Origin: a phage
Sequence record: OZ346187.1
Strand: one strand, 5' to 3'
DNA length: 64,000 bases
Below the pieces are notes generated by a model. It saw nothing but the letters and a program-made list of their open reading frames with translations, searched no databases and was not told the origin of the DNA. The translations under genes and the position numbers were made by a program. Shown here piece by piece: positions 640 to 64,000 of this stretch (its first letter is position 1; every line of letters starts with the position of its first letter).

Positions 640-1122
640 ATGTCAGATTTTATGTGGAAAGTAGGTTATGCCTCTCCTGAAATGTGCGAGGCTTGCTTTG
701 TAAAAATAGGCCGCGAGGATATTGACAAAGTGATCTTTAAGTTTCGTGATGTATCTGTGATCGGCAACCGAGTGCTTAAGCACTTAAAGAATCTGAAGCT
801 CACCAAAAAGAAGTTCTTCGGACTTTTCGAAGAGAAAGTTGATGCTTGGACCCATTGCATTCAGGAAGCTAAATCTCACTACAGTGCTATCGTTACCCCA
901 GAACGGGTAGCCAAGATGGAAGGATTCATCAACAGCACAGAGTTTGAGTGCCTAAAGGCTGCCCTTAATAGTTATCCAAAGTGCCTCAAACACCTTGACA
1001 AGTATGTAGAAAAGGATGGGGAAATGTACCTAACCCTGGACGCATATTATGAGATGCAAGAAATTTTAAATTTAGATTTGACATTGGTATCCACCGAGTA
1101 TACAATAGGTATCCGGGTTTAA
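640..1122 (+). CDS. hypothetical protein
   Basis: ORF with ATG and upstream GGAGAGAG RBS-like sequence; followed by hairpin terminator. Confidence 0.5.
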   Translation: MSDFMWKVGYASPEMCEACFVKIGREDIDKVIFKFRDVSVIGNRVLKHLKNLKLTKKKFFGLFEEKVDAWTHCIQEAKSHYSAIVTPERVAKMEGFINSTEFECLKAALNSYPKCLKHLDKYVEKDGEMYLTLDAYYEMQEILNLDLTLVSTEYTIGIRV

Positions 1123-1128
1123 CACTAG

Positions 1129-1155
1129 GCCCTGCCCGAAAGGGTGGGGCTTTTT
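1129..1155 (+). terminator. rho-independent terminator hairpin GCCCTGCCC-GAAA-GGGTGGGGC followed by TTTTT (copy 1 of 2)
   Basis: GC stem, GAAA tetraloop, T-run; near-identical copy at 12508-12535. Confidence 0.6.
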
Positions 1156-1173
1156 GCATTAGGAGACAGCAAA

Positions 1174-1938
1174 TTGAAATTCATCTACAAAGAACACTAC
1201 CACAAAGGTGTTGTGTGGAGTCTATTTGACGGGTCTGGTGGTGCAGTTATTGACTGGGCAAAAGCTGGGTACCTGTGCCTGTGCTTTAATGCAGAAGGTG
1301 CTGACCACGGCAGTTATGCAGAGGTGATAACCGATCATCCTAACATTCACTATGTGGATTATTGGATTGACCCATGGTTCCCTCAGGAAACTTTTTGCAT
1401 GTATCCAGCTCCAGACTTTATTCTTGCATTTCCTCCGTGCACGCATTTAGCGGTATCAGGTGCTGCACATTTTAAGAAAAAGCTGGCTAAGGATCCTTTG
1501 ATCCAAATTAATGCTGTAAAGGATGCTCGGGTTGCGGAAGAGTTGGGAGAGATTTACGATTGCCCGTGGCATGTAGAGAATCCTGTAGGGGTTATGTCCA
1601 CACTGTGGCGAAAACCTGATTACCGTTTTCATCCTTCGGATTATGGTGGGTATTTACCGGAGGATGATGTAAACCCCTGGTTTCCTGAATTTATAGCTCC
1701 ACGTGATGCCTACCCAAAAATAACTTGCGGCTGGATAGGCAATGGATTTATAATCCCGGCCACAAAACCTGTCCCGCAAATAGTTGACGCGGTTAGCGGG
1801 TATTCCATGCAACACGCCAAGCTGGGTGGAAAGAGTGCAAGAACGAAGATGATCCGAAGCCTCACGCCACGTGGCTGGGCAAAAGCCGTATTCTTAGCAA
1901 ACGAGCCTGTAGTAAGGAGCAGAATTAATGGGAAGTAA
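1174..1938 (+). CDS. divergent C5-cytosine methyltransferase-like protein
   Basis: Motifs in canonical order: FDGSGG (motif I FxGxGG), FPPCTHLAVSG (motif IV PC-), WHVENPVG (motif VI ENV); probable TTG start after AGGAGA RBS (ORF-track start 1144 lies inside the terminator hairpin). Confidence 0.45.
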   Translation: MKFIYKEHYHKGVVWSLFDGSGGAVIDWAKAGYLCLCFNAEGADHGSYAEVITDHPNIHYVDYWIDPWFPQETFCMYPAPDFILAFPPCTHLAVSGAAHFKKKLAKDPLIQINAVKDARVAEELGEIYDCPWHVENPVGVMSTLWRKPDYRFHPSDYGGYLPEDDVNPWFPEFIAPRDAYPKITCGWIGNGFIIPATKPVPQIVDAVSGYSMQHAKLGGKSARTKMIRSLTPRGWAKAVFLANEPVVRSRINGK

Positions 1939-4006
1939 ATTTATGGCATCTGCATACAACCGTTTCGGTGAGCCAAACCCGAAAGCAATTAAGTATAAAA
2001 GTGGGGGAAGTGTGAAACGAGACTATCGTGATGAAAAAGAGGTTGAAACTGTAGAGACTGTTTTAGAAAATACTAAAATCGTCCCTGTCCCACAACAAAA
2101 TATCGGTCTGATGGCTGCACAATATTTTGGTGTGCGATCAGCATTGTCCCAAGAAGACGGTGTGACAGTCACTGCAACATATTTCCCATATTACGACCGA
2201 TACGGAAATCTGTCCGGTTTCAAAAAGCGTGACTGGACTATTCCTAAAGAACAAAGGGGCCACTTCTCCGTTGTTGGCATAGTAAAGGCCAACTCCCAGA
2301 TGTTTGGTCAAAAGCTGTGTGCATCTTCCAACAACCGTAAGCAGATTAACGTTTGTGAGGGAGAAGGTGATGTTATTGCAGCATGGCAGGCTGCATATCA
2401 GATACAAGTAAAAGGGATTCTCACCAACGCTAAAGCCCCGGCAAAGGTGAAGCAGTGGGCTAAAGAGGTCCAGGACGGGATCGACGCAGTTATCAACGGT
2501 GGTGATCTGGCAGGAAAACCCTGCCTGCCTTTTGTTGGAATTAACTGTGGATGTGCAAACGCAGTAGATACTTTTGCAAACAATGAGAAGTTTATCCGTA
2601 GCTATGGAACAGTTGTGCTGGCAATGGATAACGATGCAGCTAACGAGGTAGAGAAGCAAAAACACGTCATTAAAGGTGTTGAGGCCACGCACAATATCGC
2701 AGCATTTTTGATGGCTGATAACGTTTACCACGTAGAATACCCTGGTGAAGTAAATGACCCTGACGGGGTAAAAGATATCCGTGACATGCTGAAGGCTAAA
2801 AAGCTGGAAGATATTGTCAACATGTTCCGGCACCCTGTTAAATATGTGCCTGATGCTGTGTCGGATTTAGAAGACTTCTCTATCGAGTCTTTGCGGAAAA
2901 AGACTTCCAACGGGGTAGATATCAGCGCAGAGTTCCCAAAACTGCAAAAAATGCTAAAAGGCTTGCACAAAGGGACACTCGTAATGCTTACAGGGCCATC
3001 AGGGGGCGGTAAAACAACTGTAGCTAAAAAACTGGAACATTGTATTGCAAGATACCTAATGGACCCGACATGCCCGAAGGCTGATGACTATGAAGAGGAT
3101 GATCGTCTATGTATGATCCATCTTGAGGAGGACCCAGAGGAAGCAATTAACTCCTTGTATGCAAACCAGTTAGGGTTTGATGTTAAAGAGTTTGTTGAAG
3201 ATCCTAGCCAGTTTTTAACTGATCAAGAACACGCAGAGATTCACCAATCATGGGCAAAAGCTGGAAAAATCAAAGTGTTCAAACATTTCGGATCTATTCC
3301 GGTGGACGAGTTGATTACCAAGCTTAAGCAAATGGTTTGCCTGTACCATTGCCGTTATATTGTGCTGGATCACCTATCCATGGTAATTTCAGGGCTTAAT
3401 GTTAAGGATGAGCGAAAAGAACTGGACATGGCTATGACTCAGCTGGCTGCGTTTTGTAAGCAGTTTAACGTGTTTATCTTGGTGATCGCTCACCTCAAAC
3501 GTACAGAGATTGTGCCTCCTAAGGACAAGGATGGTAACCCGTTACCTTTCTGGTATCCTGTGCGAAAAGAGAATTTGCGAGGATCGGCGGGGCTTGAACA
3601 GTTGAGTTGGGTAGTCATAGGTGTCGAGGCCGAAGAAATGGTGGATCGTTCTCGTGGACGTGTCCGTCTGGTAGGTCTTAAAAACCGTCCAGCAAAAACT
3701 CTAGGTATTGCTGACACTTTGGTTATGGACCCGCACACAGGTAAGTTCCATGATGCCAGTAATTGGTACTGGGACAAAGAAATGCAAATGTTTACAGACG
3801 GAGAAGGTGGGGAGGTTGTTTGGAGACCTCAGGCTATGTTTGAGGATCAGGAGCATGCAGTTGTAGAAACACCTATGGGCAAGGTTGTGGCTGATAAGGT
3901 TGTAACTCCTACTGTTAAGCCTGTTGACACGCAGGAAGACCTCCAGTACGATGATCCATCCTCTGACCCGGTCCCTGGTTTTGAGGATGATGAAACGCCT
4001 TTTTAA
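1928..4006 (+). CDS. DNA primase-helicase (TOPRIM + DnaB-like helicase)
   Basis: TOPRIM-like NVCEGEGD; Walker A LTGPSGGGKTT; DnaB-like CRYIVLDHLSM; acidic C-terminal tail ending DDETPF. Confidence 0.8.
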   Translation: MGSKFMASAYNRFGEPNPKAIKYKSGGSVKRDYRDEKEVETVETVLENTKIVPVPQQNIGLMAAQYFGVRSALSQEDGVTVTATYFPYYDRYGNLSGFKKRDWTIPKEQRGHFSVVGIVKANSQMFGQKLCASSNNRKQINVCEGEGDVIAAWQAAYQIQVKGILTNAKAPAKVKQWAKEVQDGIDAVINGGDLAGKPCLPFVGINCGCANAVDTFANNEKFIRSYGTVVLAMDNDAANEVEKQKHVIKGVEATHNIAAFLMADNVYHVEYPGEVNDPDGVKDIRDMLKAKKLEDIVNMFRHPVKYVPDAVSDLEDFSIESLRKKTSNGVDISAEFPKLQKMLKGLHKGTLVMLTGPSGGGKTTVAKKLEHCIARYLMDPTCPKADDYEEDDRLCMIHLEEDPEEAINSLYANQLGFDVKEFVEDPSQFLTDQEHAEIHQSWAKAGKIKVFKHFGSIPVDELITKLKQMVCLYHCRYIVLDHLSMVISGLNVKDERKELDMAMTQLAAFCKQFNVFILVIAHLKRTEIVPPKDKDGNPLPFWYPVRKENLRGSAGLEQLSWVVIGVEAEEMVDRSRGRVRLVGLKNRPAKTLGIADTLVMDPHTGKFHDASNWYWDKEMQMFTDGEGGEVVWRPQAMFEDQEHAVVETPMGKVVADKVVTPTVKPVDTQEDLQYDDPSSDPVPGFEDDETPF

Positions 4007-4068: not shown

Positions 4069-7000
4069 ATGAGTATGTGGAATTTTGACTTTGAGGCCTC
4101 AGGTCTTCTGGACGAGGAAGATCTTTACTACCATTGTGGCCTGTTTAAAGAGTTGAATAAAAATAATTTTATGTTGTTTTTGCCTATCAATGATAGATCT
4201 CATTACAGTGAAGAGGAGGTTGAAAAAGCAAAACAATTTATGCTGGCAAAGCAAGATATCTATCCTAGCTGCTCTGTCCGTATTGCGGATTTCAGCCAGC
4301 TTGAATGGTGGTTAACCGGGAACTCCGATTGGTCACCCACATCATTAAGTTGTCACAACTGTTTTAGTTATGACTTTATCTTGATGGAGAAGCTGTCTGG
4401 TATTCATTTTGATATGTTCCGTGATCCCAAGTGTATGGGGACAATCAATAATCATCAGGTGAACCTGTTCGACACTCTGCCAATGAGTCGTATACTATGG
4501 CCCGACAGACCGTTACCTAAAGGATGCCCTGATTCTGTATACAATCCTGTTACAAAACGTATGCAGCAGGTAGGTCCTCATGGCCTAATGGCGTGGGGGT
4601 ACGCTTTAGGAAACCAGAAGGTTAAAATTGATGACTGGAGAAATTTACCTCTGTGGAAGTATGTTGATCGTGTATTCGAGGACGTTATCATCCAGGAGCT
4701 GCTCTGGAAAGAGCTGGTAGCGGAATCAAAAGGTGTATTCTACGGCAAATCTGACATGCAGAACTTTATGTACGATCCAGCCAAAGAGAAGCCGAAAGGG
4801 TTCAAGAAGATTACCTGGAAGAATGCATTACGCCGAGGCATGCTGCAGCACTTCCTGATGGAGCTGCAGGCCCGTCAGGGTGTATACTTCGACATAGATG
4901 GAGCTATTGCTTTACGTGACCGTTGCGATGCGTGGATGAAAGAAATCGCTGATCGTGTTGAACCACAACTACCTTTAAAAGAGCTGTCAATGTCTCAGCG
5001 GCCCAAGTTCCCTGAAAAGCCGTTTAACCAAGACGGGACAATCTCTAATAATGGTTGGAAATGGTTAAAAGATAAGCTTGGCTATCCTGTAGACATGAGT
5101 GCTTTAGAGTTCAAAGCCCCGCCTAAGCGAGCATTTACCTCTACAGGAGATGTCAGCAAGATGGGGATAAAATGGTGTGAAGAGATGGGCTGCAAAGACC
5201 CCGATAAGATGGCTGATTTCTTGAGAGGCTATATTAAGGGCACCTCCACACCACAACCCTTACCTAAAGAGCTGATGGATCAGGCAATAAGTGATCTGCA
5301 GCAGAAGCGAATGCCTGACTGCAAGATACCTATGAAAATCAGCAATCAGGACGACATCAAGCGATACCTAATCAGTGCTGGTTGGCTCCCAACAATGTGG
5401 AGAACTAAAGATGTAACTAAAGACAGCAAGAAGAAAGCTTTACCTGATGCAGATGTTGATGCACGAGTATATGCATATATGGACGAGCTTTTGGAGTCAG
5501 AGTATTGTGACCTAATTATCAACTTCTGGAACAAAACTGATGCTAAGTTCCAGACAACCGTGCACAAGTTCCGAAGCTTTCCTAACTCCGAAAGGATTAA
5601 AAAGGAAGTATTCGGGAAAATACGTAGAAAAGCCAGGGCACTTATTACTTCTCCGCAACTGAAAGATACGTTTGGACACCTATGCCCAAATCTTGAAAAA
5701 TTGAACGGAGAGATGGCTAAAGATATCGTCTTGTGGTTATCATTGCGAAACCGCAGATCGGTCCTTGATCCAATCAAGGAGGATAAGGTTGATACTGGTC
5801 TTCTTAATCACCCACGTTTGAAGATTGACCATAAGCTTCCTGCTAAAAGCTCTGGATTAACAAACACTTCCAGACAGAAACACAGTATTTGTGCAAACAT
5901 GCCTAAACCATCTCCTAAAGTGGTTATGGGTAAAGAGATGCGTAGTCTGTGGGGTGTTCCTCCGGGATACTTTGAGATCGGTATTGACGGGTCCAACTTA
6001 GAGCAGCTTATCGGGGCTTGGGGTGCCTTTGAGTTCGACAACGGCCTGTATTATGATGTTGTAAGTAATGGCGATGCACACTGTTATTCAGGAGATACAC
6101 AAATTCTCACGGAGAAAGGGTGGGTGAGGTTTGAAGATCTTGATCCGGGAACACAAGTGTTCCAGTACGATCACAACACCTCGTCAATGAACCTTGTTAC
6201 TCCATTAAATTACGTTAAGCGTAGTTATTGTGGGGATATGTATCATTTCCACAACAGTAGTGTGGATTTTATGGTTACAGATCAACACAGGATGCTGACT
6301 GTGGATCACAGAAGCAATAAATTGTTTGAAGATTTGGCAAAAGACCTGAAAGCAGGTAAAGGGTCTAATTCAGGAAGAAGGTTTATCCATGCGGCAGAGT
6401 TTTATGGGAATACAACCTTATCTCCTGCCCAGGTTAATTTGCTTATTGCTATTCACGATGATGGGCACTTGCATACAAATAAGGACGGCAGCATCGTGTG
6501 CAGGATTCAGGTCGGAAAGGGAAGAAAAGTTGCAACGCTTTTAGATACTTTTTCTGCTCTAAGCCTTAGTTATGTAGAGCAGAGCGGGAAAACCACAAAA
6601 GGGGGCTTACTGGCGAGAAGGTTCCAATTCCACGTTCCGTCCTGGGTATTTGAGTTTTTGGACAACAATAAGGATTTCACCTATAACCTGATGAACCTTG
6701 ATAAAGAATCTAAAAACCTGTTTATAGCTTCTTTATCTAACTGGGACGGGTGGGTATCTTCCGAAGGTGGAAAGGTTGCTTACTACTCCCAGGCCGAGTG
6801 CAGGAAGAAATCTGTAGAGGTGGTGTCTGCGCTGGCTACTCAGTGTGGTTTACGGAATAATACGGTGGCGATTCACAAAAAAGGTCGTGCCGTGCAGCAC
6901 AGAATCACAATTGGTAGCAAACAGAGAGCAGGGTTGCTGACACTATCTAAAGAGTCTGTCGAGGTGAGCGGTTCTTTGGTTTATTGCGTTACCGTCCCTT

Positions 7001-7401
7001 CTGGAGCAATCATTGTGAGAAGGAATGGTAAAGTGGCAGTGTGCGGTAACTGTAATAACGCCAAAGCTTACTCTTCTGTAGCAGGCAAGGAGATTTCCCG
7101 TAACGATGGTAAACCTATCACGTATGGGGTTATGTATGGGGCACAAAAAGATAAAGTTGCAGATATGCTGGACATCTCCCCAGAGTTGGGACAAAGGGTA
7201 ATCGATGCACTCTGGGATGCCAACCCAGGTCTTAAGGGGCGCAAAGAGGATCTGGAGAAATTCTGGGAAGCAACAGGTAAGAAGTTTATCTACTCTTTTG
7301 ATGGTCATGCTATCTGGACCCGATCTAAACACTCTTTACTTAATGCATACCAACAAAATGGCGGTGCATCGTTGTGTGACTTAGTTGGAATACTCATGCA
7401 C
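4069..7401 (+). CDS. DNA polymerase, family A, exon 1 (contains an in-frame intein; ORF reads through to a stop at 7467 inside the intron)
   Basis: 3'-5' exo motifs FDFEASGL (Exo I) and CHNCFSYDF (Exo II); motif B-like RNDGKPITYGVMYGAQ; ORF ends ...GILMH just before the expected HDE of motif C. Confidence 0.85.
6082..7050 (+). mobile_element. intein with LAGLIDADG homing-endonuclease domain inside DNA polymerase
   Basis: Starts CYSGDTQILTEKG (intein block A), TDQHRML (block B TxxH), LAGLIDADG-like LLIAIHDDGH and LFIASLSNWDGW, ends ...VAVCGN followed by Cys (+1). Confidence 0.65.
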
Positions 7402-7737
7402 CACCAGATGGTGAAGCGTGGGTGGTACGATGAAGGTGTTCGTCGTATTATTTATTACCATAAATAACATTGTGGCTTCATAGAGTAATCTATGTCGAAT
7501 AACCTCTTTAACTGCGGGAAGCCTAAACCTTATGGCAAGGTAATCCGCAACGAAGCGCTCAAAAGAGCGAACGCTCAGAGGCCATTCCGAAAGGAAGTAG
7601 ACCAGCAAGTGCGGTCGAAATGGGAGGATTCCTGTGGTTGCTTATCATAGGAATATGAGATGGTCCGATCCTACGTGAAAACGTATGGCTATGCACGTAA
7701 TGGTGCGGGGTAGCTTAACGACCTACCTGAACTATTG
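7402..7737 (+). mobile_element. group I intron without ORF, interrupting DNA polymerase at motif C (boundaries approximate)
   Basis: P-like AACTGCGGGAAG, Q-like AATCCGCAAC, R-like CTCAGAGGCCA, S-like AGATGGTCCGATCC; joining exons gives ...ILMH-DEYQLQV. Confidence 0.6.
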
Positions 7738-8091
7738 GATGAGTACCAACTTCAAGTGCCTGACACACCGAAGTATAAGACTGTGTACACCTTCGACACA
7801 ATTGAAGAACTGGAAGCATTTAAGGCAGAGCAGGAAGCCAAACTTCATGTGTTCGACGGTCATAAGTACAAAAAGGCACGCAAGGATGAGGACGGAAACG
7901 AAGTGGTTGACAGAGACGGAAACACGGTGTACGATCCTATCCTGAACGATGACGGAAAGCTTGAACTTATCTGGAGCCCTGTGGGTGAAATGGTGGTACA
8001 TTGCTTCTGGCAAGCTTCTAAAATGATGGGAGTCCCGTTCCAGATCACAGGTGAATACTTGTGTGGTCGTAATTGGGGTGATTGTCACTAA
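7738..8091 (+). CDS. DNA polymerase, family A, exon 2 (C-terminal part)
   Basis: Begins DEYQLQV (completes motif C HDE) and ends GRNWGDCH, the conserved C-terminal His of family-A polymerases. Confidence 0.7.
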   Translation, partial: DEYQLQVPDTPKYKTVYTFDTIEELEAFKAEQEAKLHVFDGHKYKKARKDEDGNEVVDRDGNTVYDPILNDDGKLELIWSPVGEMVVHCFWQASKMMGVPFQITGEYLCGRNWGDCH

Positions 8092-8140
8092 TGTAAACTA
8101 TCAACACATGGAAGTGTTGTTGAGCAAAGAGGAGACTTTT

Positions 8141-46411: not shown

Positions 46412-46633
46412 TTAGTAAAACTGAAGAATGTCTTTTAAAGCGAAGTCACGATATTCGCCCTTGTCTACATCGAAGGCACGCATCAACCACTGCTCTTCTT
46501 TATGATACTCTGTAGAGCCAAACCATAAATTAGGCTCAGTAACGCAGCGATCTGCAACAACACCTTTCCAGTTACGGTATTTCATCCTGATCAGGACTGA
46601 GTCGCAAGGATTGAATACCTTTTTCATCCCCAT
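46412..46633 (-). CDS. hypothetical protein
   Basis: ORF-track ORF. Confidence 0.4.
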   Translation of the reverse strand: MGMKKVFNPCDSVLIRMKYRNWKGVVADRCVTEPNLWFGSTEYHKEEQWLMRAFDVDKGEYRDFALKDILQFY

Positions 46634-47177
46634 AGAAATCTCTCTCCTCAGTTTTCTTTATAAACTCCTGCATGTAGGACTCAATAGCCTCATGCTTGGT
46701 GCACTCTGGATTAATGACAAGATTGAGATCTGATTCTGCTCGTGCAATGATCGTAGCTTTAGAGCATCTCCTCAAGAACTTTGTCATATCATCTCTGTAG
46801 TTTTTGTGGAGCGGGAAGTCGCTGTAGTCTTTCTCCAAATAGTCAGCCATCCGGCGCAACGCCTCTGATAAACTGCAATCTGTATACTCGTTACAGTATT
46901 TCATCCAGTATTTAAGCACATACCCCTCAAAGGTATTAGTGCATTGTGACAAAACACCCCTGCAACGACCAGTCAGATGGTCATGATCCAAACAAGGCTT
47001 ACGAAGTGGCTCGCACAAGATCGGATCAAGACCATCCTGCTCCTCTGACAATTCTTTTCGAAAGTTGGCTATGTCCTTAGAATCTTTTAGCCACCCGCTA
47101 TGAACGGGGGCTTTGACAGCTTTCTTTCTTATTTTACGCTTTGCGATAACCCCTCCAGATGCGCCCTGCCTATCCAA
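46572..47177 (-). CDS. endonuclease VII-family (HNH-like) nuclease
   Basis: CLDHDHLTGRCRGVL matches the T4 endonuclease VII core (DHDH-TG-RG). Confidence 0.6.
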   Translation of the reverse strand: MDRQGASGGVIAKRKIRKKAVKAPVHSGWLKDSKDIANFRKELSEEQDGLDPILCEPLRKPCLDHDHLTGRCRGVLSQCTNTFEGYVLKYWMKYCNEYTDCSLSEALRRMADYLEKDYSDFPLHKNYRDDMTKFLRRCSKATIIARAESDLNLVINPECTKHEAIESYMQEFIKKTEERDFYGDEKGIQSLRLSPDQDEIP

Positions 47178-60742: not shown

Positions 60743-60817
60743 GCCCTGTTAGCTTAGTGGATAAAGCAGCGGCCTTCTAAGCCGTTGACACTGGTTCGAG
60801 TCCAGTACGGGGTGCCA
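60743..60817 (+). tRNA. tRNA-Arg (anticodon TCT), CCA encoded
   Basis: Cloverleaf: acceptor GCCCTGT/ACGGGGT, D-arm GCTT..AAGC, anticodon loop CTTCTAA, T-arm ACTGG-TTCGAGT-CCAGT. Confidence 0.8.
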
Positions 60818-60821
60818 AATT

Positions 60822-60908
60822 GGGGAGTTATCCCGTAGAGGTAGCGGTGTAGACTGTAAATCTATTGTCATTGCGACTCGGGTGGTTCGACTCCACCACT
60901 CCCCACCA
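60822..60908 (+). tRNA. tRNA-Tyr (anticodon GTA), long variable arm, CCA encoded
   Basis: Acceptor GGGGAGT/ACTCCCC, anticodon arm GTAGA-CTGTAAA-TCTAT (GACUGUAAAUC as in E. coli tRNA-Tyr), T-arm GGTGG-TTCGACT-CCACC. Confidence 0.8.
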
Positions 60909-61022
60909 AATTTATATTTTTAGATGCATAAATAATACAGATAATGGCATTGATATTTATCGTCGTTTATACTAGTCACTAACTGCTCGAAAATCAGTGT
61001 CATTATCAGTATAATTTATAAA

Positions 61023-61113
61023 GGAGGGTAGGGAGCAATGGTGCTCAAGCGGTCTTGAAAACCGTCCCGTTGAGGATGACTCGATGATGGTTCGATTCCA
61101 TTACTCTCCGCCA
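61023..61113 (+). tRNA. tRNA-Ser (anticodon TGA), type II, CCA encoded
   Basis: Acceptor GGAGGGT/ACTCTCC, anticodon arm GCGGT-CTTGAAA-ACCGT, long variable arm, T-arm GATGG-TTCGATT-CCATT. Confidence 0.75.
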
Positions 61114-61211
61114 CATTGTTGACCTTGTAATTAAGCGAAAGCCGGAAGCAGAACCGGATTATCAAATGTTACAGTCGTCATCGCCGACTAGCAACATGGT
61201 CAACATACTGA

Positions 61212-61310
61212 GCTAGGTAAGCCCTTTGGCAAGGGCGAGGATTTTTAATCCTGAAAATAGACGAGGTAGTCGTTGAATACATAGGTGGTTCGATTCCATC
61301 ACCTAGCACC
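61212..61310 (+). tRNA. atypical tRNA-like gene (possible tRNA-Lys TTT with ~30-nt extra arm) or tRNA pseudogene
   Basis: Perfect acceptor GCTAGGT/ACCTAGC, D-arm GCCC-TTTGGCAA-GGGC, T-arm GGTGG-TTCGATT-CCATC, but 47 nt between D and T arms; loop TTTTTAA on a 4-bp stem. Confidence 0.4.
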
Positions 61311-61315
61311 TTTTT

Positions 61316-61391
61316 GCTGATGTAGCACAATCGGTAGTGCAATTGATTTGTAATCAATAGGTTGTAGGTTCAAGTCCTGCCATCAGCACCA
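61316..61391 (+). tRNA. tRNA-Thr (anticodon TGT), CCA encoded
   Basis: Acceptor GCTGATG/CATCAGC, D-arm GCAC..GTGC, anticodon arm ATTGA-TTTGTAA-TCAAT, T-arm GTAGG-TTCAAGT-CCTGC. Confidence 0.8.
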
Positions 61392-61392
61392 A

Positions 61393-61467
61393 GGCCCTGT
61401 AGCTGGAAGGTTCAAGCAAGCGACTCATAATCGCCAGACGGTGGTTCAATTCCACCCAGGGCCACCA
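61393..61467 (+). tRNA. tRNA-Met or Ile2 (anticodon CAT), elongator-type, CCA encoded
   Basis: Acceptor GGCCCTG/CAGGGCC with G1-C72 pair, anticodon loop CTCATAA, T-arm GGTGG-TTCAATT-CCACC. Confidence 0.75.
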
Positions 61468-61478
61468 AATAGTAAATA

Positions 61479-61555
61479 CTCCGCGTAGCTCAGCTTGGTA
61501 GAGCGCCTGATTTGGGATCAGGAGGTCGAGTGTTCGAATCACTCCGTGGAGACCA
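61479..61555 (+). tRNA. tRNA-Pro (anticodon TGG), CCA encoded
   Basis: Acceptor CTCCGCG/CGTGGAG, D-arm GCTC-AGCTTGGTA-GAGC, anticodon arm CCTGA-TTTGGGA-TCAGG, T-arm GAGTG-TTCGAAT-CACTC. Confidence 0.8.
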
Positions 61556-61976: not shown

Positions 61977-62375
61977 ATGATTTCAGTTTTAACATGGCTG
62001 AGCAGGTATAAAGGGATCATAAAAGGTTTAGTTTTTGCAGCTGCGATAGGTACAGCTTATCTTGGGGCCGTGTATTGGTTTAACTCTAAGCTTAATGATG
62101 CCTACCAAGAAGGTGTGTCAGCAACAGAGTTAAAGTGGGAACGGATCCTTGATCAGCAACAAAAGCAGGCCGACAAAATTAAAATGGGCCACGCAGAGGA
62201 GGTTAAAAACCTTGAAAAATCCCTTTCTGATCTGCAGGATAAATTAAATATAGCTGAGAAGGCAGGTAAAGAAAAGCAGATTATCTACCTCCAGTCACCT
62301 GAAGGCAAGAAGTCAACACTTCCTGATCAGCTTATAGATATTTATAATGAGAGTATCAATCAGGAGGATCAATGA
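61977..62375 (+). CDS. putative i-spanin (Rz-like)
   Basis: N-terminal TM helix LVFAAAIGTAYLGAVYWF then charged coiled-coil; overlaps downstream lipoprotein gene. Confidence 0.5.
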   Translation: MISVLTWLSRYKGIIKGLVFAAAIGTAYLGAVYWFNSKLNDAYQEGVSATELKWERILDQQQKQADKIKMGHAEEVKNLEKSLSDLQDKLNIAEKAGKEKQIIYLQSPEGKKSTLPDQLIDIYNESINQEDQ

Positions 62376-62659
62376 GAGTTGCTACACTGTTTATTGTGTG
62401 CTTGTTATTATGTGGGTGTGCAACCAGCGTTGAGAGAGAATACAAGATTGACCCTCCTGATGTAGGAAGGTTGATTGTTAAACCCCCGGAAGGTGCCATG
62501 AAACCACCTGCTAAAGCTATGCCTTTGAAGAAAGGTGCGCCAGATGCAGTGAATTCTGGCATTATGAGGGATAATAATCTGTCTTGTAGCAATGATAGAG
62601 CTAAATTGATCATTTTGCAAGACTATATTAGAACACTTTTTCCAAAGGAGAGAGGTTAA
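62372..62659 (+). CDS. putative o-spanin (Rz1-like lipoprotein)
   Basis: Lipobox-type signal MRVATLFIVCLLLCGCAT; Pro-rich; 4-nt overlap with the i-spanin candidate. Confidence 0.5.
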   Translation: MRVATLFIVCLLLCGCATSVEREYKIDPPDVGRLIVKPPEGAMKPPAKAMPLKKGAPDAVNSGIMRDNNLSCSNDRAKLIILQDYIRTLFPKERG

Positions 62660-63084
62660 TGTCTAAGATTTACGGACCGTGTTCTGAAAAGCAGAAGATG
62701 ATCCTAGAAAACGATGCAGATATTTTGGTAATCGGCGGTGCCGCAGGGTCTGGCAAGTCGTTCCTCTTGCAATTGATGCCACTTAAAATTATTGATGACC
62801 CCCACAGCTCTGTGGTTATGTTCCGAAGAACAACCCCACAGTTGGAAGGTGAGGGTGGATTATGGCCTAAAGCAGTAGCTATTTATAGTGATCTGCCTGA
62901 AAACATTAAGCCAAAGTTTAGAGAGAAGGATCATAAGTTCATTTTTCCACGGTTTGATCCGAACACTGGCAAGTGGGATAGAAGCAAAAAGGGAGCTGTT
63001 GTAAAATACTGCCACATGGAGTATGTACAAGATAAGCTTAACCATCAGGGGCTTGAGTACACCATGGTTTGCTTCGATGAGGGT
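62659..63084 (+). CDS. terL: terminase large subunit, exon 1 (N-terminal ATPase; interrupted by intron)
   Basis: Walker A VIGGAAGSGKS; Walker B MVCFDEG immediately before the stop at the intron start. Confidence 0.7.
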
Positions 63085-63134
63085 TAATTTGTAGCTCTCG
63101 TAAAACCTCCCTAATTGCGGGGAAATCTTTATTA

Positions 63135-63163
63135 TTGACACCACCAACCTGTCATGGTAACAT
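63135..63163 (+). promoter_or_regulatory. promoter-like TTGACA-17-TAACAT inside the terL intron, upstream of the endonuclease ORF
   Basis: Consensus -35 and plausible -10; overlaps palindrome TGTCATGGTAACATGACA. Confidence 0.35.
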
Positions 63164-63302
63164 GACAGAGGCTTCGAAGAGAGATCGAAGGTATGGTAAC
63201 AGTGTGTTAATTTAGATAATCCGCAGCGAAGCATCCGAGAGGATGAACGTTCAACGACTAGTCGAAAGACGTAGAATCAAGCGATTCGAAACGGGAGGGT
63301 GA

Positions 63303-63893
63303 ATGTGTAATACTAAGAAATGTATGGATTGCCAAAGAGTTCTACCTATTGATGATTTCTTTTTATCATCTAAGAGCAAGGATGGATACTCAGGTACATG
63401 CAAGGAATGCTATATGTACTACAGGAAGGGTGGATCTCGTAAAAACAAAAATATGGTTAAGAGAGATGATGCAGCATTGTTTATTCAAGACTTGCTGAAG
63501 AAAGGTGAACTTTTTGAATGCAAATCTTGTCATGAAAGTATGCTCGCTGATAGTTTTTACACAAAACGTGACTATGGTAAAGTATATCTGGTTACGAACA
63601 GGTGTAAGATGTGTGAAAAGTTTTATCAGATTGAGAAGAAATTTAACATAACAAAAGATGAATACTATCGTCTACTCTCAGATCAAGATCATAAGTGTGC
63701 CATTTGTAGAATATCCCTTGATGAGTATAGGACGCAAGGGTATAGAGATTTCTTTTGTGTTGATCATGACCATAAAACTGGTGCTGTAAGAGGGTTGCTT
63801 TGTGATAAATGCAACAGAGCTTTAGGTTTCTTCCAAGAGGATGAGGAAACTATTCTTAGAGCGGCAGAGTATTTACACATTCATAAGATATAG
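63303..63893 (+). CDS. endonuclease VII-family (HNH-like) homing endonuclease, intron-encoded
   Basis: FCVDHDHKTGAVRGLLCDKCNRALG matches the endonuclease VII core; several CxxC pairs; inside the terL intron. Confidence 0.7.
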   Translation: MCNTKKCMDCQRVLPIDDFFLSSKSKDGYSGTCKECYMYYRKGGSRKNKNMVKRDDAALFIQDLLKKGELFECKSCHESMLADSFYTKRDYGKVYLVTNRCKMCEKFYQIEKKFNITKDEYYRLLSDQDHKCAICRISLDEYRTQGYRDFFCVDHDHKTGAVRGLLCDKCNRALGFFQEDEETILRAAEYLHIHKI

Positions 63894-64000
63894 TCTGGTC
63901 TGCATGGAGACATGCAGCTGCCTGAAAATGGCGGGGCAAGACTAGCGACCTTGCCCGAACATAAACGACACAATTCGAATGGGAGCAGATAGACTACCTG

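Follow-up and report, generated by a model that had tools for sequence, protein, structure and literature searches.

We conclude, with a probability of about 90% as judged from the sequence, that the large terminase gene (terL) of this rV5-like phage carries a mobile group I intron. Its predicted removal would restore a complete terminase, and it encloses an open reading frame (ORF) for a 196-aa protein with the endonuclease VII (Endo VII) motif. The window analysed here is the whole 64,000-nt stretch of record OZ346187.1, and terL runs past its last base. The gene follows a tRNA cluster, an i-spanin gene (61977-62375) and an o-spanin gene (62372-62659), the same order as in annotated relatives.

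The ORF list shows the ORF at 62659-63087 terminating in ...TMVCFDEG followed by TAA. The sequence-only reading was thus right that the terL ORF stops directly after Walker B. Both nucleotide-binding motifs, Walker A (GAAGSGKS) and Walker B (MVCFDE), are visible in the exon 1 translation, and exon 1 plus the next 11 residues matches Pfam Terminase_6N (PF03237) at 29.7 bits against a cut-off of 22. A PDB sequence search with the full-length TerL, made as a structural check on Walker B, returned no terminase match; the Walker labels therefore rest on the sequence pattern together with the Terminase_6N match. The exon 1 protein is identical to the N-terminus of TerL from phages FV3 and MaxBurger.

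The remainder of terL resumes within the window. When position 63084 is joined to 63968, the reading frame continues as ...TTC GAT GAG GGT/ACA CAA TTC GAA... (the slash marks the junction), giving FDEG/TQFEWEQIDYL, and the predicted ligated exon junction 63084/63968 reads ...GATGAGGGT/ACACAATTC.... The insertion point lies one codon past the Walker B Asp-Glu. Exon 2 resumes in frame exactly at the base after omega-G, where there is no start codon. The spliced protein, ...VCFDEG/TQFEWEQIDYL, is that of the uninterrupted 515-aa TerL of phage FV3, identical at the junction, and removal of 883 nt from MaxBurger terL leaves a complete 515-aa TerL with no stops. Comparison with intron-less relatives, which the sequence-only reading had proposed, thus supports its view of an interrupted gene. 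Two of its expectations held in part: the in-frame continuation exists, but it begins inside the window at 63968 rather than beyond it, and the intron starts at 63085 as proposed but stops at 63967, short of the window edge. The features are listed in Table 1.

Table 1. Positions of the terL exons, the intron with its helices, and the intron ORF in the window. For helices, the 5' and 3' strands are separated by a slash.
Feature	Position	Strand	Remarks
terL exon 1	62659..63084	+	142 codons; Walker A GAAGSGKS, Walker B MVCFDE; last exon base U63084
Group I intron	63085..63967	+	883 nt, ends with omega-G 63967; Rfam RF00028; boundaries from FV3 and the MaxBurger join
P1	63077-86 / 63092-101 (internal guide)	+	U63084-G63094 wobble at 5' splice site; Rfam alignment, minimum-free-energy (MFE) map
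P2	none
P3	63106-11 (CCUCCC) / 63293-98 (GGGAGG)	+	Rfam alignment, MFE map
P4-P5-P6 domain	63115..63245	+	MFE map
P4	63115-21 / 63220-26	+	MFE map
P5	63125-28 / 63214-17	+	long extension with hairpins 63149-56/63161-68 and 63172-77/63185-90
P6	63232-36 / 63241-45	+	MFE map
P7	63254, 63256-59 (A, bulged C, GACU; in R element) / 63892-96	+	GACU/AGUC pairing checked
P7.1/P7.2-type insert, between P7 and P3 3' strand	63260-92	+	hairpin 63274-78/63283-87; insertion relative to the Rfam model
P8	63299-310 / 63873-84	+	12 bp, encloses the ORF; 3' strand inside the ORF 3' end
Homing endonuclease gene (putative)	63303..63893	+	196 aa; Pfam PF02945, PHROG and PDB matches
S element (J8/7 plus P7 3' strand 63892-63896)	63885..63898	+	overlapped by ORF stop UAG 63891-63893
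P9	63900-06 / 63911-17	+	MFE map
Peripheral P9.x hairpin	63934-40 / 63950-56	+	MFE map
omega-G	63967	+
terL exon 2, first 33 nt	63968..64000	+	TQFEWEQIDYL; runs on past the window; TerL total 515 aa

A group I core is present in the intervening RNA. Searched locally with RF00028, the segment 62900-64000 gave a full-length alignment (model positions 1-253) to 63075-63917, with a score of 47.5 bits and an E value of 9.6e-11, far from what chance would give; the covariance-model fold proposed from 63085 is therefore found. This score is just below the curated RF00028 gathering score of 50 bits, and a scan of all 64,000 nt at the default Rfam gathering threshold did not report the terL intron. What takes the score below 50 bits is the 584-nt ORF segment in P8, where the ORF-less allele has a hairpin of 20 nt. 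ORF-less alleles that share the core clear the threshold, the 319-nt form reaching 84.3 bits in JohannBauhin (E = 8e-21) and, in rV5, 84.9 bits. Between the window core and that of JohannBauhin, only 4 of 298 nt differ, all 4 in the first 214 and none in the last 84. The same default scan reports one group I intron in the window, at 7452-7687.

The fold itself agrees with this assignment. With the ORF loop trimmed, the window intron has an MFE of -123 kcal/mol (z = -7.4 against shuffles), and helices P3, P4, P5, P6, P8 and P9 come from this fold and the Rfam alignment. P7 makes a pseudoknot with P3 and was therefore positioned manually, with the R/S consensus as the guide. All the core motifs quoted in the sequence-only reading are where it had put them: AATTGCGGGGAAA (63113-63125), AATCCGCAGC (63218-63227), GTTCAACGACTAGTC (63249-63263) and AAGATATAGTCTGG (63885-63898), each of them unique in the 64-kb window. 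The last of these is the S element, which, as had been noted, contains the TAG of the ORF at 63891-63893. Both splice signals are present, namely the U63084-G63094 wobble in P1 and omega-G63967 immediately before exon 2, and intron-less alleles establish the same boundaries independently. The insert between P7 and the 3' strand of P3 suggests an IA-like subgroup. In the magaca allele, hairpin 63149-56/63161-68 shows a compensatory change from C-G to U-A; this is the single such change, and with copies that are all ~98% identical, covariation adds very little support. A sigma-70-like match, TTGACA-17-TAACAT, occurs at 63135-63163 in the P5 arm, as a match to the consensus.

A group II intron, an intein and a programmed frameshift were each considered for the interruption and ruled out by the group I core and by RNA-level boundaries (U before the intron, G at its end); against all three there is also the ORF, which lies in a different frame context with its own Shine-Dalgarno sequence and AUG. 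A group I fold is found, terL continues in frame downstream, and the product is the TerL of relatives; thus neither of the outcomes that the sequence-only reading had named as fatal to it, a missing fold or a genuinely truncated gene, describes this locus.

The ORF within the intron carries the endonuclease VII signature that had been ascribed to it. It contains CVDHDHKTGAVRGLLCDKCN and matches Pfam Endonuclease_7 (PF02945) at 77.1 bits (E = 9.9e-22, cut-off 23.6 bits), several PHROG endonuclease VII families and, in the PDB, Hpy99I (E = 6e-6) and T4 Endo VII (E = 5e-4). Two Cys4 modules make up its N-terminus (C7/C10/C33/C36 and C73/C76/C101/C104), and these align with the restriction enzyme Hpy99I. 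The catalytic domain follows, with C132/C135, D154-H155-D156-H157, R163, C167/C170 and N171; its catalytic and zinc residues align to C23/C26, D40-H43, R54, C58/C61 and N62 of T4 Endo VII, the roles of these residues in the Endo VII motif being those described by Fang et al. 2018 (PMC6083498). The match to T4 Endo VII is limited to the catalytic N-terminal part of that enzyme (T4 residues 8-68).

The ORF is built into the ribozyme fold. Its Shine-Dalgarno sequence, GGGAGG (63293..63298), is the 3' strand of P3 and stands 4 nt before the AUG; the AUG at 63303 lies within the 5' strand of P8, and the last codons of the ORF build the 3' strand of P8. A comparison of the kind made by Bonocora and Shub, between the exon target and the intron sequence at the ORF insertion, gave a best local score of 11, which is not significant, since 10% of shuffles reached it, as did 5% of windows drawn at random from the genome.

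The intron and its ORF are distributed unevenly among close relatives. In a megablast search against 50,697 phage records, the region 62300-64000 is 99.9% identical over all 1701 nt to Escherichia phage MaxBurger and 98-99.8% identical to ~30 further members of the genus Vequintavirus, all rV5-like. Matches to the terL flanks occur in about 120 rV5-like records, a count that, like those that follow, includes RefSeq/GenBank duplicates. The intron 5' core is present in 53 records, the ORF in 30, and the ORF-less intron in ~23 (53 minus 30), including rV5; ~65 of the ~120 are intron-less. This three-state distribution is patchy, and exon similarity does not predict intron state. MaxBurger, with intron and ORF, is nearest to magaca, which has the ORF-less form, at 14 differences; next come Murica and FFH2, both intron-less, at 25-26. 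JES2013, also with intron and ORF, has 40 differences from MaxBurger and is nearest to the intron-less FV3 (25 differences).

The bases flanking the junction also differ with intron state. All five intron-bearing alleles examined read GGT/ACA, and all six sampled intron-less alleles read GGC ACG. Among the intron-less records in the collection, none is more than 97% identical to the intron-type flanks. Instead of co-conversion, the cause of this difference could be common descent among the intron-bearing alleles. The population shows the pattern of a classic homing element, from which homing itself is inferred.

Part of this pattern might also be expected if the intron splices while the endonuclease is an inactive or decaying passenger late in its homing cycle, the polymorphism having come about by ordinary recombination and ORF loss. 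We consider this improbable. The ORF is indeed absent from 23 of the 53 intron copies, and purifying selection is hard to show because the ORF copies are nearly identical, with all 30 at least 97% identical in protein; yet the ORF is intact in every copy checked, its catalytic and zinc residues are complete, and the codon differences between the window and JES2013 are 7 synonymous and 1 non-synonymous. Moreover, the ORF-less P8 hairpin and the ORF segment have no common word longer than 5 nt. The ORF-less form is thus not a simple deletion derivative, and the two alleles differ by a clean swap of P8; the ORF-less P8 as a deletion remnant of the ORF was rejected on this ground.

The identity of the ORF invites a second reading, in which the protein is a Holliday-junction or branch resolvase for packaging, like T4 gp49, placed within terL for co-expression. 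This is very unlikely, because the ORF is optional, being missing from about three quarters of otherwise near-identical genomes, and because its alignment with T4 Endo VII is confined to the catalytic part, the N-terminal Cys4 modules of the ORF being Hpy99I-like. It does belong to a Pfam family named 'Recombination endonuclease VII', and T4 Endo VII is established to clear branched DNA ahead of packaging. However, Fang et al. 2018 (PMC6083498) place the JES-2013 orthologue in the endonuclease clade and not in the resolvase clade, and another gene in the window, on the minus strand at 46572-47177, codes for a second Endonuclease_7 protein that could be the resolvase.

That terL is truly split, its halves made as separate polypeptides without RNA splicing, follows the GenBank records of JES2013, magaca and others, which show two separate 'terminase large subunit' CDSs with the second starting from an internal Met, but is scarcely credible here, given that the intervening RNA has the whole group I core and the right signals at its splice sites, that exon 2 is in frame at omega-G+1 without a start codon there, that the second CDS of JES2013 starts 105 nt (35 codons) past the predicted start of exon 2 and so loses a conserved TerL segment, that relatives make one continuous 515-aa protein, and that phage CB7 has another intron at this motif whose splicing was shown by RT-PCR. 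Since the phages with this allele were isolated as viable and TerL is essential, the interruption presumably must be removed.

The mobile group I intron that we favour is already annotated and published, and is not a new kind of element. The GenBank record of MaxBurger gives terL as a join over 683..3113 with a 'putative homing endonuclease', and the two-piece joins of terL span 1548+883 nt in MaxBurger and 1548+319 nt in JohannBauhin. In the rV5 record, terL is a three-piece join, with the ORF-less intron at this site and a second, downstream intron that carries an unrelated HNH gene. Kropinski et al. 2013 (PMC3606486) devote a section, 'Introns in terminase', to rV5 and thank David Shub for the intron definition; the same paper cites a terL intron in Lactobacillus phage LL-H. 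The LL12 genome announcement reports that terL and the DNA polymerase gene contain introns, and the BASEL paper (PMC8594841) says that it annotated the boundaries of introns that have putative homing endonucleases. In Fang et al. 2018 (PMC6083498), F-CphI is defined as the founding member of a family of homing endonucleases with the Endo VII motif, and gp64 of Escherichia phage 2 JES-2013 (AGM12453) is listed as intron-encoded. This protein is ORF64 in the JES-2013 terL intron and differs from the window ORF by 1 residue. The suggestion that an intron in the packaging ATPase with this class of endonuclease is an unusual combination is therefore not upheld, given the GenBank join, the rV5 terL introns published in 2013, the JES-2013 orthologue in the 2018 survey and the related endonuclease in phage LPML1 described below.

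Comparison with known systems places the window intron within a wider pattern. In rV5, MaxBurger, DrSchubert, WalterGehring and JES-2013, the terL intron occupies the same site (DEG/T) with a core 98-100% identical to that of the window; rV5 differs in its ORF-less 319-nt form and in its additional downstream intron. The F-CphI family shares the motif set CX2C ... DHDH ... R ... CX2C-N with the ORF, and F-CphI of S-PM2 is 30.6% identical to it over 61% of its length. F-CphI is free-standing, lying beside a psbA intron and acting in 'collaborative homing', whereas the window ORF lies inside P8 of its intron and its activity is predicted from sequence. Zeng, Bonocora and Shub 2009 is a further source on this family. 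Phage T4 has introns in td, nrdB and nrdD with I-TevI, I-TevII and I-TevIII. These differ from the window intron in enzyme class (GIY-YIG, and HNH for I-TevIII), in host gene and in the position of the ORF in the fold.

Two phages outside the genus have introns at the Walker B codons of terL. The first, LPML1 (Ounavirinae, Felix O1-like, OK283618), likewise carries an Endo VII-type ORF, and its endonuclease is the nearest relative of the window ORF outside Vequintavirus, with 41% identity over the full length (E = 7e-49). Its ORF, too, lies in P8 after the P3 3' strand, with a stop abutting the S element, and its intron scores 57 bits in Rfam. However, the LPML1 intron is inserted 6 nt upstream (AIYWD/EFTHF, compared with FDEG/TQF in the window), and its ribozyme core is ~60% identical to that of the window with many gaps, the likeness being confined to generic blocks. 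The second, Pectobacterium phage CB7 (Certrevirus, Vequintavirinae), has a group I intron at GVD/EGTQF, whose splicing was demonstrated by RT-PCR (PMC7344957). The CB7 intron differs in its ribozyme, in its site, again 6 nt upstream, and in its ORF, an unrelated HNH gene without significant similarity to the window ORF.

The window, LPML1 and CB7 introns together indicate that the Walker B codons of terL are a repeated intron target. The Endo VII-motif lineage is found in P8 of two different introns inserted 6 nt apart, in two subfamilies, Vequintavirinae (the window) and Ounavirinae (LPML1). Tentatively, this lineage may be specialised on the DNA of the TerL Walker B codons and may move independently between unrelated group I ribozymes, a proposal we regard as possible though doubtful.

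From these features we propose the following course of events. The transcribed RNA would fold into the P1-P9 core, and an external guanosine would attack after U63084, which would be held in P1 by its wobble with G63094. The freed exon 1 would then attack after omega-G63967, and ligation of the exons would yield ...FDEG-TQFEW... and restore the 515-aa TerL. Self-splicing of this kind is predicted from the fold and the junction. The P8 loop would supply an endonuclease of the Endo VII motif (His-Me finger, F-CphI type) with zinc-ribbon DNA-binding modules. During a mixed infection, this enzyme would be expected to cut intron-less terL alleles near the Walker B codons, and recombinational repair from an intron-bearing genome would copy the intron, with a few flanking exon bases, into the cut allele. 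That the enzyme is active, cleaves near this site and acts on the intron-less allele while the intron-bearing allele is immune is suggested by its family membership and by the polymorphism.

The arrangement of the ORF may add a regulatory layer. With its ribosome-binding site formed by the 3' strand of P3 and its AUG in P8, translation of the endonuclease would be expected to compete with intron folding or splicing: the start site would be masked in the folded intron, and ribosomes moving through the ORF would break up the core. We infer from this layout an interplay between translation and folding.

These results bear directly on annotation. In rV5-like phages that carry the intron, terL must be given as a join, yet in many public records the gene is still entered as two 'terminase' CDSs or the ORF is named 'recombination endonuclease VII'. 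The locus also offers a textbook homing cycle: between them, near-identical and easily cultured E. coli phages of the BASEL collection show the empty site, the ORF-less intron and the intron with its endonuclease. It is thus a convenient system for homing, for co-conversion and for an intron-borne member of the little-studied Endo VII-motif family. If the lineage reading is true, the 319-nt and the ORF-bearing forms would be a natural before-and-after pair for an endonuclease gene colonising a pre-existing intron.

The DNA polymerase gene of the window carries a second group I intron. This intron contains no ORF, and its host gene is identified by the annotation of related records; the coding sequence reads ...IIYYH before the junction and DEYQLQ after it. 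Among relatives the same site is found either without the intron, with a span of 747 nt versus 1023 nt when the intron is present, or with it, and APECc02 represents a third state in which the DNA polymerase intron carries an HNH gene. A DNA polymerase intron is mentioned in the LL12 announcement. Within exon 1 of the same gene, a segment beginning CYSGDTQILTEKGW (approximately aa 672-706) looks like an intein N-terminus; the corresponding Pfam match, to Hint_2, is sub-threshold (E 8.8e-4, 20.1 bits versus a cut-off of 28.4). With 6900-8100 as the query, the initial 178 nt are missing from most relatives, so this intein-like insert appears to be optional.

Features of the window and of terL regions in other phages
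Feature	Record	Position	Strand	Details
DNA polymerase exon 1 ORF	window	4069-7467	+	1132 aa
Group I intron, ORF-less	window	7462-7737	+	276 nt; Rfam 64.7 bits over 7452-7687
Endonuclease_7-family protein	window	46572-47177	-	201 aa; Pfam E 1.4e-7; motif CLDHDHLTGRCRGVL
tRNA-like element	window	61212-61308	+	97 nt; low score, 35.5 bits
Candidate sigma-70-like site	window	63135-63163	+	TTGACA-17-TAACAT, extended -10 TG; consensus match only, 10/12
rV5 terL region, two introns	NC_011041	2131-4976
CB7 terL region with intron	KY514263	1-2457		site between GVD and EGTQF
LPML1 terL group I intron	OK283618	2306-3125		820 nt; 57 bits

Two further features of the window lie outside these genes. The Endonuclease_7-family protein on the minus strand is the second member of this family in the window, is unrelated to the terL-intron ORF, and may act as this phage's native resolvase of DNA junctions. 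The tRNA-like element falls within a tRNA cluster (60743-61552) and is annotated in relatives as 'tRNA-OTHER' or 'tRNA-Asp|Gly'.

Inside the terL intron, the candidate sigma-70-like site is located within the P5 arm and precedes the AUG of the endonuclease ORF by 140 nt. Its -35 hexamer is kept intact in magaca and reads TTAATA in JohannBauhin, both of which are relatives with an ORF-less terL intron. Escherichia phage V18 (KY683736), which has no intron, carries a 9-bp duplication, GGTTTGCTT, at ~2575-2600, along with a 1-nt deletion (GAGGGC to GAGGC). Both changes coincide exactly with the intron insertion site, and terL is thereby split into two CDSs. These changes may stem from a mistake in sequencing or assembly, or may be a scar left by repair where the endonuclease would cut.

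Introns in terL also occur in other phages. The LPML1 (Ounavirinae) intron splits the gene between YWD and EFTHF and encodes a 181-aa endonuclease that is 41% identical to the window's terL-intron ORF, with its gene at the same position in the fold. A Listeria host, as implied by the name 'Listeria phage LPML1', seems doubtful for this Felix O1-like genome. Similarly, the C. jejuni host assignment seems questionable for 18 'Campylobacter phage' records (MG0656xx), whose terL is 96-98% identical to that of E. coli rV5-like phages and which include all three intron states: empty site, ORF-less intron, and intron with ORF. The second of the two rV5 introns contains an HNH gene that bears no relation to the ORF in the window's terL intron, and in CB7 the insertion point lies 6 nt further upstream than in the window. 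Judged by these sequences, the two rV5 introns together with that of CB7 indicate that terL is host to at least three different introns within Vequintavirinae.
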